Of a stretch of DNA of 14,180 bases, positions 3,001-9,000 are shown one piece after another. The DNA comes from a virus (lineage: Duplodnaviria; Heunggongvirae; Uroviricota; Caudoviricetes), in IMG/VR virus record IMGVR_UViG_2737471855_000005, positions 1 to 14,180 of that record; one strand, 5' to 3'. Positions within the stretch are counted from its first letter, which is position 1. Each line of letters opens with the position of its first letter. Position numbers: made by a program.

Positions 3001-6000
3001 AACTTCATCACCTGTTCTTTTTATTGCGTCGTTGTCTGACATTTGTAATACAACAACTGCGCATAATAAATTATGGATATTGTTTGCAAAGGAATCTGGT
3101 GCCAGGCATAAGCCTTCATACTTATCATGGATATTGCCAGTCATTGTTGCTACTCCTTTGCTTCTGATTTGCCTGTTAACAACCACATCAGGTCACAATT
3201 AAGAGCACTGGCCAGTGGTACTATCTGATCAGCTGGAACTTCATGGATGCCGCATTCCCAGTCATTTATGGGGTCACTATAGGTATGAATCATGCGGGCA
3301 AGATCAGATTCGGTTAATCCCAGTTTTGTACGGGCGCTTTTGATGCGTGCGCCAATACTTTCCACATGGACTTCAGGCTCATTTACGCGAATAACTGACT
3401 CGCTGTTTTTTTCACTCAGCAGAGAAAGCGGATCGCATCCTAGGACGTTTGCCAGGGGGATAAGCATGCTGATGGTTGGTTCGTACTCTCCGCTCTCCCA
3501 CTGGATGATAATTTCTTCATCGAGATCGAGCAGCCTGGCGAGTTCGGCAGTTGTTAAGCCGCAGGCTTCACGTTTGGTGCGTATGCAGGCTATCTTGTTG
3601 CCTGAGCGAATAGAATGTTGTTGTTTTGTCGATGCGATCGCTAAAGCATATTCATGAGTAAATTCCAGCACATCAAACCCAACCTCTTTTAATCGCGTAT
3701 CATCCAGGAGGTTGAAGGTGCGAACAGCACTGAGCAGGTTTGCGATGGTTAATGCAAAAGAATCGAGGTCTAAATCATCACATAAAACCTTGTTGTAAGT
3801 ATTGAGGCTACATGTTTTTGGTGTTGTTTGTAAGGCTTCCATATCATCACCATGCAATTCTAAGTTGAAGTTAATCAATATATAATTGATGGTGAGATAT
3901 TATGTATCAGGAAAACGTGTGTCAATCAAAAATTGATAAACTTGATTTTTTTGTAATGTGTGACCAATAATTTAATTTAAAATCAATAACTAACCAAATC
4001 TGTTGATATTGAATGGTACCGATGAGATGACTTTTGACTGGATATATAGCAGCGCCATTCCCTCTTTTTCGATGCTCCATGGCTGATAGTTGGGATTGTC
4101 TGATAAGACCATGATCTTGCTTCCAATTTTTTGAAGTCGTTTGATGTAACATTCGCCATCAAAGCAAAATGCATAAATGCCATCACCGTCAAAATAAGTT
4201 ACTGTTTTATCTAAAAACAGCAAGTCCCCTGGGGAGATTGTTGGGGCCATGCTGTCCCCTCTGGCGTTACCAATTTCTATGTTCTTGAATGCTCTGTTAC
4301 CGACCAGGCGGCGGGCATATTCAGGATCAAGTTCTATTGAGCGTACAACATCAATTAGATCTCCCCGAACATGAGTTCCGTCGCCGCAGCTGAATTCAAC
4401 ATCCAGTACATTGAACACAACGCTGTCTTCTCTTGTATGGTGTTTTTCAGCTGAAGAAAGTGTTGATGAGGTGTCTTCACCCAAAAACCAGGATTGTGGA
4501 TAACCACTAATTACTGATAGTTGTGCAAGTTTATCGCTTCTGGGAAACGTCTTTCCTGTAGTCCAGTATTGTACTGATTGTGCGCTTACACCCAGCTTAC
4601 GGGCTAGTTCAGCCTGACTCCAGCCTTTTGTTTTCAGCATCATTGCTATCCGATTTTCTGTGCTTTTTACATTCTTCATGGTGAGTTCCTGTCGAGGCTT
4701 TATACACATAAATATTAACTTGATTTTAGTGTATTCGATCCTTTTGAAACTTGCATGTTAATTTATTCTTGATGTATTCTTGATTTGTAAAGTTAATATT
4801 GGAGCTGTGCTGTGATAAAACTGAATGATTACGACATGTTGCGTAAATTGATTCCTCAAAACGCCATAGCAAGATACATCGGTGTTACGCCACAAGCGGT
4901 GAACCTGTGGTTTTCTAAAAACTCCGTTCCTTCTCGTTTTGTTTTACGGGTGTGTGAATTAGTTGAATGGAAGGTTACTCCGCATGGGTTAAGACCTGAT
5001 CTATACCCTTATCCCGAAGATGGAATTCCTGATTCGTTACGAAAATCAAACGGTATTACCAGAGATTAAAGACTGACTGTCACGAGCAGTAACTCACGAT
5101 GCATACGTTTTGGCGTGAGTTCTGAAATGTCATCCTCAAGGAGCAATCAGATGAATACCGCAATTTTTACCGATAAAGCATCCATGACCAGCGTTGAGAT
5201 CGCAGAGCTGGTGGGCAGCCGCCATGACAAAGTGAAACAATCCATTGAGCGCCTTGCTGAACGAGGGATTATTCAGCTTCCCCCAATGGGGATTTCTGAA
5301 AATATCAATGGGTTAGGTTTAACTCAAAAAAGTAAGCATTATCTTTTCGAAGGTGAACGAGGCAAGCGCGACAGCATCATTGTTGTCGCACAGCTTTGCC
5401 CTGAATTCACCGCCCGCCTGGTAGACCGCTGGCGCGAACTGGAAGAACAAATCCGCAAACCAATGAGCCAGATCGAAATGGTTGCTGCAATGGCGCTTGA
5501 AGCTGTTCGCCAACAAAGACGTCTTGAGCAGGTGGAAGAGAAAGTCACCTACGTTACTGAAACCGTCGAGAAAATCAAAAGAGGCACCATACGCTATGGT
5601 TATGCAGGTTACCGTCAGCTGGTGGCGAAAACGGGTATGTCAGATGCGAAATGCCGCAATCTGGTGAATGCATATCAGATCCCTACCGACACCCATGAGT
5701 TCATGACGCCGGATGGATTGTTGTCGCGTCGCGCGATTGTTGCAGTAGAACCTTTCATGGCTGCTTTTCATCGCATGATGAGTGAAGCAGAGCCACGAGG
5801 TGCACGCTGGTATCACCCGAAAATGGGGTTGTTCCAGGCGCTGGGCTGGCAGGGGTAATTATGCTCACAGGTAACACATGCAAGTACTCAATCGCTGGTT
5901 CCGTGATGGAAGGGGGCGTCGCGTCCACGTTATACGCTGGGAGCCTGAAACACAGCGGGTTATTTACCTGCGTGATGGTTATCCGCATGAATGCTTCAGC

Positions 6001-9000
6001 CCGCTGTGGTTGTTTCGTCGTGATTTTGTTGAGTGTGAAGCGCCACCAGCATATTGATTCTGCAATTCCGGGACGTTACACTGTTCAGGCACCTTATAAA
6101 ACGGGTGCCGGGATTGGCGTCCTAGAATTGCATACGGCGACAATTGGCGCGTTAGCGTCTTTTTTGTTGCTACAACTCAGCTATACCCAAATTATGGTGG
6201 GCTGGGTGGGGGCACCGAAAGGTGCGCCGGTTTCCGTATGCGCCGGTTACGCCAACCCTGCTCAGTTCACCACCAGCGAAATTGGCGTTTCCGGTGGTGG
6301 AAGTTATCCATTGCATACGGAGGCTGCCATCATGGCTACAGACCCAACTTCCCCATACCTGAAAATCGAAGTCGTCAACGGCAAGGCCGTTATTTTCTCC
6401 CTGCATGTTGCCTGCCATTTCAAGCGCATGCACCAGAACATCGTCGACAAAATCGAGTATCTGAACTGCTCGCGCGAATTTTTTACCCGCAATTTCATAC
6501 CGGGTACTTATCACATCTATGGTGACTCCCTGCGTGGTTATTACATCACCTTTGATGGCCTGATGATGCTTCAGCTTGGGTTAAGTCTACGCACAATGCG
6601 GTACTACGAGAGCTGCATTGAAGCATTCCATGAGGCAGGGAACAGCCTGAATCTTACCGCTTTCCGCCGTAATCAGTGGGAGGCGCGTCCATGATTAGTT
6701 ACGAAATTATTATTTCCACAACTGAATACAGAAACGATGTATCAGTTCGCACGGATGTATCTGTCTGGCACCGTCGCTATAAATCCAGAAAAACGGCAGA
6801 ACTGAAAGCGGCAGAGATGTGTGAAACCATCTCAATGAAAGGTAGCCCGGTTAAATACGTAACTACGGCGGAGGTGCGTCCATGATCCGCCACATCGTTA
6901 ATTTCCTGTATCACCGATACAACCATTGCCCCCGTGTGGGGCAGTGGTTCACCACCAGCAATGGACACGTTCTGCGGGTTTGCCTGGTCAATACAGAAAG
7001 CCAGAAGGTTGTCTGCCAGGTTCAGGGACGTACTCATACCCTGAGTTATCCGCTGGTGGCGTTTCAGTCCGGAAAAATGTTTAAGCGTCTGGGAGGTGCC
7101 GTATGAGTAGCAAAATCCTAGGTAATGTCTGGGATGCATGTGCAGCATATGGCATCAAAGGTGCAAAACTGATGATTATGGCGCGCCTGGCGGATTATTC
7201 GAATGATGACGGGGTGTGCTACCCAGGTGTTGAAACCATATGCCGACAGCTTGGGTTGGGAGAAAGTACAGTCAGAACGGCAATCTCCGAACTGGAGGCT
7301 GATGGCTGGCTGACGCGTCAGTCACGCCGCAAAGGTAACCGTAATACGTCCAATCTTTATCATCTGAATGCTGATCGGCTTGAGCTGCTTGCCAGAACAG
7401 AGCGGGATAAGGTTGCAGAACTGAAACAGCAGCGCAGACTTTCAGGATTACGTGACCCTTCAGATTCTGAACCTTCAAAATCTGAACCGTCAGAATCTGT
7501 ATGTTCAGGTGTGTTTGACCCTTCAGATTCTGGCAAAAATACGCGTTTGACCCTTCAGAATCTGACCCCAGATCCACAAGGTTTAAAACATGAACCACCA
7601 GTAAATTCAAAACATGAACCGCAAGATATTGGCGCATCCGCTGACGCGTCTGCACCAGCGCGTTCTGCCAGACAGGAATATTCACCGGAATTTGAACAGG
7701 CCTGGCAGGAATATCCCAAACGTGCTGGTGGTAATTCCAAGTCAGCAGCCTTCAAAGCCTGGAAAGCCCGAATCAGGGAAGGTGTGACACCAGAAACCAT
7801 GCTCAACGGTGTGAAACGCTATGCTGCCTGGGTGCGTGTCTCAGGAAATACCGGCACCCAGTTCGTGAAGCAGGCGTCGACGTTCTTTGGACCCGATCGT
7901 CACTTCGAAGATTTCTGGCAACAGCCAGCAGCTCCTGGAGGTGGGCGACAGCGACAGGTCGATGTCCTGGCTGGCCTGGGAGCCATGTCTGACAAATTCG
8001 GTAAATCCAGTGACAAATTGACATTCTGAGGTGACAGCGATGATGACGTTTAACCTGCGTGAACAACAAACAAGACTACAGGCGCGGATGGATGAGTTAC
8101 GGGCAGAGATTGCATTTGCTCAGAAGGGCGAAAAACCATGGCCTTATCGTTCCTGCTGGATGCGTGAAGGGCGCGGGTGTTGCGAAAAACATGGCGAATA
8201 CCACACACATATTCTGGTGTGGAGTGATCGTAATGGCGAGGACAGAGAAAAAATTTCATGCTGCCCTGACTGCTTGATAGCTGAGGCCAACGATTTGACC
8301 ATGGAGCTGTCGTCCCTCAAGGCGGAAGAACTGACTGATAACGCCGGAATTGCTCTGCGTTTTCGGGACTGCGAGTTTGATAATTATCTGGAGGTTAATC
8401 CTGACGCAGCCAGAAATCTTGCGGCCTGTCGCCGCTATGCGGAGAACTGGCCAGATATGCTGGAGAACGGTACCAGTCTTGTTATGACCGGCAGTTGCGG
8501 TACCGGGAAAAATCATCTGGCGGTATCAATGGCAAAACACATCATCCGTAACTATCTGGCCAGTGTGGAGATCACCGACGTGATGCGCCTTACCCGTGCT
8601 GTGAAAAACTGCTGGCGGAATGACAGTGAAAAAACAGCGGATGACGTCATTGAGCATTATGCGTCACTGGATTTGCTGATCATCGACGAAGTCGGCGTTC
8701 AGTTTGGCAGTGCGGCTGAAATGGCCATTTTGCAGGAAATTATCAATGCCCGGTATGAGGGTATTTTGCCAACTATCTTGATCAGCAACCTTTCACCGGA
8801 AGAATTGTGGGCGTTCATCAGTCCCCGGATTGCCGACAGGATCACCAATGGCGGGCGCAACTGGTTGTCGTTTAACTGGCCCAGCTACCGTTCTCGTATC
8901 GGAGGTGTTGCCGCATGACCAGCCAGAACACCCCGGCATGGCGTAACGATGACCTGGAAGGCGCTGTCATTGGCGCGTTTTTTCTGCGTGGGGCTGATCC

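Follow-up and report, generated by a model that had tools for sequence, protein, structure and literature searches.

Positions 6058-6331 of an Escherichia coli prophage, between a small gene with a DUF4222 profile match and a series of coupled replication genes, very probably constitute an IsrK/C4 antisense RNA immunity leader of the type known from P4, P1 and Gifsy-1. The stretch of DNA that we analyzed (hereafter, the window) comprises positions 1 to 14,180 of IMG/VR record IMGVR_UViG_2737471855_000005 and, over 93% of its length, shares 98% identity with the Shiga toxin-producing E. coli (STEC) strain FHI_NMBU_10. Sequence analysis and comparison with relatives show two RNAs with defined folds, complementary to each other and to a downstream target, a predicted duplex that would occlude a ribosome-binding site, and a reading frame maintained throughout. 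The initial annotation had considered the segment unexplained and had proposed regulator-binding sites, a structured small RNA or a decayed gene. This interpretation is partly supported, the small-RNA option being correct: there are two RNAs, both belonging to curated Rfam families and both with folds backed by covariation. The start codon that closes the segment is the ATG at 6332 (not 6333), which places the gap after the 59-residue open reading frame (ORF) at 6058-6331.

An Rfam scan of the window returned exactly two matches above curated thresholds, both inside this gap. The first, on the plus strand at 6089-6165, is an IsrK/seqA/c4-a1b1-type RNA (RF01394) that covers the full model (1-77) with 54.9 bits against a threshold of 50. 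It opens with a hairpin at 6089-6108, which accounts for the first of the inverted repeats noticed previously (GGCACC at 6088-6093 and GGTGCC at 6104-6109, separated by 10 nt), and continues with a second hairpin whose loop displays the a1 site TTGGCGT (6114-6120). The b1 site TGCATACGG is single-stranded (6129-6137), and the RNA ends with an intrinsic terminator, also caught by a terminator scan, which consists of a stem at 6146-6159 followed by a run of six T residues at 6160-6165. Upstream, we could read a putative sigma-70 promoter at 6054-6083 on the same strand, with a -35 element TTGATT (6054-6059), an 18-nt spacer and a -10 element TACACT (6078-6083) that ends 6 nt before position 6089. 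The TGA stop codon of the DUF4222 gene sits within the putative -35 element, and in relatives with unrelated upstream genes the similarity to the window starts exactly at ATATTGATTCTGC, that is, at this element. By its position, the promoter would be the counterpart of P4 PLE, P1 P1c4 and Gifsy-1 PisrK.

The second match, at 6190-6277 on the plus strand, is a C4/CI-type antisense RNA (RF01695, 80.7 bits against a threshold of 45, full model 1-87). A 17-bp outer stem (6195-6211 with 6256-6272) encloses two hairpins. The first (6212-6225) is the GNRA-looped inverted repeat GCACC-GAAA-GGTGC, found at the previously noted position. The second pairs GCCGG (6226-6230) with CCGGU (6243-6247) around a 12-nt loop, b', of sequence UUUCCGUAUGCG (6231-6242). 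Since this hairpin contains the palindrome CCGG, the direct repeat TGCGCCGGTT reported at 6223-6232 and 6239-6248, although present, is not a separate repeat element. The junction between the second hairpin and the outer stem holds a', ACGCCAA (6249-6255). The C4 segment (6190-6277) folds at -45 kcal/mol (z = -3.9; none of 200 shuffles was as stable), and its minimum-free-energy fold is the Rfam fold. The 3' side of the outer stem bears an invariant CACCA, and the RNA can be aligned to the mature ends of P1 C4, an analogy by which the mature species would probably extend from about 6196 to 6274. Both features are consistent with RNase P trimming a longer precursor to an RNA of about 77 nt. The 5' side of the same stem contains an AUG (6194-6196) in frame with the ATG at 6332. 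ATGG at 6194 is invariant in all 53 sequences compared, and the AUG lies at +106 from the isrK start, next to the A107 reported in Gifsy-1 (PMC4825925), so that it appears to correspond to the first AUG of Gifsy-1 orf45.

The comparison relied on viral contigs carrying a C4 core pattern. We fetched 120 of these, reduced them to 73 distinct cores and retained 53 enterobacterial relatives, 53-97% identical to the window. As the core-pattern scan of the viral contig collection also drew unrelated chance matches, 18 divergent loci were rescanned with Rfam; seven showed no C4 match (L018, L060, L065, L093, L103, L124 and L043) and were excluded, together with L047 and L066. Among the relatives, the C4 fold is paired in 621 of 621 cells with compensatory changes in 12 of 27 pairs, whereas sliding the partners by one to three columns lowers pairing to 30-51%. 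For isrK, 95.6% of cells are paired and 7 of 17 pairs are compensatory, against about 40% in the slid controls. C4 hairpin 3 was preset by the search pattern and is thus uninformative for covariation. The inverted repeats are stems of these RNAs and change sequence between relatives while keeping their pairing, the first being isrK hairpin 1 and the GNRA-looped one the first inner hairpin of C4. Moreover, many pairs are G-U, which would be A-C mismatches on the other strand; hence, the structure works as plus-strand RNA and not as a DNA palindrome.

Downstream of C4, each of its two recognition sequences finds a target. The a2 site TTGGCGT (6282-6288, plus strand) is complementary to a', and the b2 site TGCATACGGAGG (6312-6323, plus strand) forms 12 contiguous pairs with b' and covers the Shine-Dalgarno sequence GGAGG (6319-6323), 8 nt ahead of the ATG at 6332. 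In addition, b' forms 9 bp with b1 in isrK, and a' forms 7 bp with each of a1 and a2. The predicted duplex between the C4 loops and 6278-6345 has an energy of -42.1 kcal/mol (z = -4.1), that between the C4 loops and isrK a z-score of -2.5, and the full-length fold of 6089-6345 (z = -5.5) pairs the C4 loops with the ribosome-binding-site region. The window contains three copies of GCATACGG or its complement, where 0.3 would be expected. The relatives carry seven alleles of b' and three of a', and b1, b2, a1 and a2 each carry the matching change; the a' alleles ACGCCAA, TCTCAC and ATGCTAA are each accompanied by matching a1 and a2 sites. This three-way covariation of sites is the strongest evidence pointing to a function, and the matched b'/a' alleles probably act as specificity types. 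We also observed that five of the seven b' alleles contain a TAA, TGA or TAG (at the equivalent of 6236-6242 in the window), never in the frame described next.

The plus-strand frame that had been noticed to run without a stop codon from 5861 to 6694 is indeed open. This frame, which we refer to as the Ash frame and which forms a long ORF resembling P4 eta, traverses the putative promoter, isrK, C4, a2 and b2, and continues in phase into the gene starting at 6332. That it is unusual for intergenic DNA is borne out by dinucleotide shuffles, in which any given frame of 6059-6331 is open in 5% of cases and of 5861-6331 in 0.5%. Candidate starts are ATG 5861 (2 nt past the stop codon of the Rha gene and preceded by AGGGG), ATG 5987 (the start picked by the NCBI PGAP pipeline in relatives) and GTG 6035. 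In translation, residues 73-164 of this frame match Pfam PF10554 (Phage_ASH) with an E-value of 4.4e-16 and 59.7 bits against a gathering score of 26. This match spans nucleotides 6077-6352, which is exactly the DNA of isrK and C4, and GenBank and RefSeq show a coding sequence (CDS) across the RNAs, labelled "immunity region", "hypothetical protein" or "ash family protein".

Two lines of evidence bear on what maintains this frame. Between the start of isrK and the downstream ATG, the other two frames of the 53 sequences have 18 and 19 distinct stop positions and the Ash frame has none. The distance from the isrK start to the start codon falls into three length classes (249, 288 and 294 nt), set by the isrK-C4 spacing, that differ by multiples of three. 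Stop codons are thus selected against. The number of variable columns at codon positions 1, 2 and 3, however, is 32, 33 and 24 in 6058-6331, as against 13, 14 and 44 in the 6332 gene and 15, 13 and 36 in the DUF4222 gene read in its own frame. With no excess at the third position, the amino acid sequence of the Ash frame is not under protein-type selection. Consequently, of the possibility that related phages share an intact conserved protein spanning 5861-6694, one part stands, since the frame is conserved and its stops are selected against, while the other does not, as the substitution pattern is not that of a protein and the arrangement is that of P4 eta. All 53 relatives read past the start-codon position in the Ash frame, and nearly all retain an in-frame ATG there. 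At least five unrelated downstream genes, each starting with MAT, follow the leader as in-frame fusions, which identifies the leader as a portable regulatory cassette. The frame also overlaps the DUF4222 gene without any stop in 32 distinct relatives, against 11 stop positions in the third frame, so that 5861-6057 is possibly a 180-nt dual-coding stretch. A search of PDB sequences with the long ORF found no relative. The PF10554 "domain" is best read as the translation of an RNA leader, and we regard an eta-like role of the open frame as rather probable.

By analogy with the characterized systems, the leader could operate as follows. In a lysogen, the internal promoter, presumed constitutive (-35 at 6054, -10 at 6078), would yield the short IsrK-like RNA. 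Partial read-through of the isrK terminator would generate a precursor from which an RNase P cut near 6195/6196 might free C4, a cut that would also destroy the AUG at 6194. C4 would then bind a2 and b2 and block translation of the 6332 gene; the untranslated transcript would be terminated, and the chain of ATGA-coupled genes leading to the O-like, DnaC-like and DnaB genes would stay off. The short IsrK-like RNA, as an a1/b1 decoy, could compete with a2/b2 for C4. Were the CI-controlled early promoter upstream, on the cro side, to fire, ribosomes would translate the eta-like frame through the terminator and C4, preventing folding and termination and making expression insensitive to RNA immunity. 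The context fits the eta model, with a cI-like repressor gene and a cro-like gene upstream and tightly coupled genes downstream.

Several observations weigh against this explanation or parts of it. The isrK match exceeds its threshold by only 4.9 bits, and the Rfam family c4-a1b1 (RF03163), which matches P1 and nearly matches P4, has no match in the window at E<=1. A consensus promoter scan of 5800-6450 found no site at threshold, so that the promoter is inferred from a reading by hand and from the homology boundary. The first 197 nt of the long ORF overlap a real gene, DUF4222, in another frame. In P1, a UAA closes the Ash frame within b', and 11 distant loci that match C4 are closed as well; the open frame is lineage-specific and not universal in the C4 family. 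The product of the 6332 gene is no more than a truncated Rha-type domain just under the Pfam cutoff, and only a putative antirepressor. Finally, it is from other phages that Rho dependence, cleavage by RNase P and a decoy function for IsrK are known; here they would apply by analogy.

The most obvious competing explanation is that the stretch encodes the N-terminal "Ash" domain of a regulatory protein of the Ash/Rha family, of 277 residues or fewer, and that the RNA matches are incidental. The open, conserved frame with its counter-selected stops would be expected of such a protein, as would the PF10554 match (E 4.4e-16) and the CDS annotations in related phages and genomes; in addition, the genome closest to the window (L004, that of strain FHI_NMBU_10) has a strong Shine-Dalgarno sequence and an ATG in the Ash frame, 54 nt ahead of the isrK start. 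The distribution of changes over codon positions (32/33/24, against 13/14/44 in the adjoining real gene) is nonetheless not that of a protein, and on this test we rejected a protein-only reading. The "peptide" blocks that are conserved fall on RNA stems and target sites, nearly every linker residue varies, and neither the compensatory pairs nor the three-way covariation of sites is explained by a protein. The PDB sequence search, too, brought up no related structure, and in the Gifsy-1 equivalent the nucleotides of orf45 are conserved but its amino acids are not (PMC4825925). Translation of the Ash frame is compatible with an RNA leader, but a folded functional domain is not supported, and we consider that the stretch is quite unlikely to be primarily a protein-coding one.

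It is highly improbable that the module is a decayed, non-functional remnant, such as a leader pseudogenized by recombination between tandem modules, even though the closest genome has two tandem modules against one in the window, which looks mosaic, and the downstream Rha-type gene is short (120 residues against 181 in relatives). All stems pair and the frame is open; b' shows perfect complementarity to b1 over 9 bp and to b2 over 12 bp within its own allele, neither the Shine-Dalgarno sequence nor the ATG is damaged, and phage PhiR47_1 carries an almost identical leader (98.9% over 274 nt). The proposal of a decayed gene is likewise at odds with strong conservation of the stretch: 1549 of 5426 complete E. 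coli genomes contain matches to 5700-6800, a segment that includes it. As for the inverted repeats being DNA operators through which Rha-family, DUF4222 or CI/Cro proteins control the replication operon, their location between regulatory and replication genes is what such sites would have. However, the half-sites vary among relatives while complementarity is kept, G-U pairs (A-C mismatches on the opposite strand) are frequent, the stems belong to complete matches to RNA covariance models, and the same cassette lies beside unrelated flanking genes. The operator reading, and with it the earlier suggestion of regulator-binding sites, was rejected on the G-U pairs, and we give it almost no chance of being right.

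The gene that the leader would regulate (6332-6694, plus strand) encodes a protein of 120 residues whose N-terminal domain is of the Rha type. The Pfam model Phage_pRha gives this protein 28.6 bits, just below the cutoff of 29.9, and phrog_995 matches it with an E-value of 1.4e-53. By position, the gene holds the place of P4 kil, P1 icd and Gifsy-1 anrP, as the first in an ATGA-coupled chain into the replication genes. A terminator-like hairpin, AACGGCAAGGCCGTT followed by ATTTTCTCCC, is found at 6377-6391, 45 nt into the gene; with 0.8 such sites expected in the scanned region, it could be due to chance. Its position resembles that of timm within P4 kil.

Profile searches assigned the genes upstream of the leader to a cI-like S24 repressor (3990-4709, minus strand), a Cro/YdaS-like protein (4812-5069) and a Rha/Ant-like protein (5115-5858). 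The 59-residue ORF at 5878-6057 (plus strand) is present as originally described, and its DUF4222 profile match (Pfam E 1.9e-15; phrog_1343 E 4.7e-34) shows that it is a real gene. Two small genes (6691-6885 and 6882-7106) separate the 6332 gene from an O-like initiator gene (7103-8029), beyond which lie a DnaC-like gene and DnaB. Starting with the 6332 gene, neighboring genes are linked by stop/start overlaps such as ATGA or by nearly abutting ends. The ATG at 6691 fits the 64-residue phrog_7046 profile, and the mechanically predicted start, GTG 6676, is thus probably wrong. A scan for tRNA and tmRNA genes in the window found none.

A 17-nt junction, GGAGGYGCGTCCATGAT, consisting of a Shine-Dalgarno sequence and an ATGA overlap, is repeated identically at 6679-6695 and 6870-6886 (two occurrences against none expected), where it joins the 6332 gene to the first small gene and the first small gene to the second. 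The junction is found ahead of the Ash-frame ATG in L004 too, and may be a recombination site at module boundaries. L004 contains tandem isrK-C4 modules at 1890-2078 and 2750-2938, 860 bp apart, whose b' alleles differ (CGGTAGTC and GATAACG). The only module of the window carries a third b' allele (GTATGC), and the window appears to be a mosaic of both L004 flanks. In five distant loci (L038, L072, L073, L083 and L106), the C4 genes have matches to int-alpA RNA (RF02996) at a distance of 1-2 kb, which suggests that these loci are P4-like satellites.

Elements of this kind have been seen before. The Rfam models C4 and isrK detect relatives of CI and seqA in genes of the Bro domain network, a set of phage regulator genes that swap domains including Phage_ASH and Phage_pRha (PMC10111431). 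Since C4 and isrK have already been reported within such genes, the kind of element is known; what we describe is a well-supported instance of a known system, and the new part is the annotation, databases showing only a CDS here. According to a recent survey of Shiga toxin (Stx) phage regulatory regions, the Ash domain has no assigned function (PMC8951638). Read as an IsrK/C4 RNA switch, this "domain" is accounted for, and PF10554 matches become markers of RNA leaders. A survey of P4-like satellites took PF10554 as a marker of epsilon (PMC8628076); as the family matches eta and not epsilon (see below), that survey probably detected the RNA immunity leader instead. Because the switch directly precedes replication genes and the prophage family is common among pathogenic E. 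coli, the allele type may influence cross-immunity and induction. A wider picture, which we put forward tentatively and hold to be doubtful as a whole, would be that a P4-style RNA switch gates the whole replication operon of a lambdoid (Stx-phage-like, "Eru"-type) prophage, and that the Ash "domain" of many phage Rha/Bro proteins is not a protein domain but the translated footprint of two RNAs, whose frame stays open solely to let ribosomes arriving from the early promoter unfold the terminator and the antisense RNA. The frame would extend through DUF4222 (180 nt of dual coding), at least seven b' and three a' alleles would represent immunity groups common to lambdoid prophages and P4-like satellites, and tandem modules of differing specificity, like those of L004, would stack immunities.

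Among the known systems, P1, for which we used the annotation in NC_005856, shares the antisense core. The immI operon of P1 and P7 reportedly reads a1 b1 - c4 - a2 b2 - icd - ant, according to work by Citron and Schuster in 1990 and 1992. As in the window, the antisense RNA belongs to Rfam C4 (68.8 bits in P1), the order is a1, b1, C4, a2, b2 and start codon, and b2 overlies the first gene's ribosome-binding site. Spacing is nearly the same, with 14 nt in P1 against 15 in the window between a1 and b1, 29 against 30 between a2 and b2, and 18 against 20 between b2 and the start codon. In contrast to the window, the P1 leader is below the isrK threshold (35.1 bits) and matches c4-a1b1 instead, its Ash frame is closed by the UAA in the b' loop, and the downstream genes are icd and ant, accompanied by a C1 operator. 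In P1 (L125), we also observed at 8268-8468 a frame other than Ash that is open for 66 codons over a1b1 and c4, with its stop 3 nt before the icd ATG.

The Gifsy-1 isrK - orf45 - anrP - isrJ locus was characterized by Hershko-Shalev et al. 2016 (PMC4825925). Its IsrK is 77 nt long and has a terminator that is partly read through; orf45 is translated and coupled to anrP, and processing yields a product of about 80 nt. A conserved AUG in the C4-like RNA (STnc1160) opens an ORF whose translation is required for the antirepressor-type gene downstream (PMC4825925). Binding of IsrK to Hfq, like its activation of downstream expression in trans, is known from Gifsy-1 only (PMC4825925), and lysogens express both Gifsy-1 RNAs at high levels (PMC7067206). 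The window resembles this locus in its 77-nt IsrK with a terminator and in the conserved AUG about 106 nt from the isrK start. In Gifsy-1, however, the orf45 stop overlaps the anrP start (AUGA), whereas the window frame continues into the 6332 gene with no intervening stop and is open upstream too, through IsrK itself. In Shigella dysenteriae, the frame is fused to the downstream gene (PMC4825925).

The closest parallel for the open frame is found in P4 (L126), in which Rfam detects isrK and C4 in the same order as in the window, inside a 214-codon ORF at 8168-8812 on the minus strand. This ORF has three consecutive Met codons and a 65-residue kil tail, and PF10554 matches it over the seqA-CI leader (E 4.5e-23), with no match to P4 epsilon (7888-8175, minus strand), which belongs to PF25738. 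P4 eta is said, in work by Forti et al. from 1999 (J Bacteriol 181:5225), to start upstream of the constitutive PLE, to run through seqA, CI and seqC and to end as kil. Transcripts from the upstream promoter escape termination because eta is translated, whereas those from PLE are untranslated, yield the CI RNA and terminate (PMC10111431). In P4 as in the window, therefore, a long ORF matched by PF10554, whose phase with respect to the RNAs is identical by that match and by the peptide blocks, spans an internal promoter and both RNAs and enters in frame a gene starting with MAT. The nested gene encodes a 120-residue Rha-type protein in the window but the 65-residue Kil in P4, the isrK-to-C4 distance is 39-45 nt shorter in the window than in P4-like relatives, and the promoter elements are TTGATT and TACACT in the former against TTGCTT and TATAGT in the latter. 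Unlike that of P4, the long ORF of the window overlaps a DUF4222 gene, and its cassette is lodged not in a satellite but in a lambdoid early-right operon, which comprises cI, cro, Rha and DUF4222 and leads on to the O-like, DnaC-like and DnaB genes.

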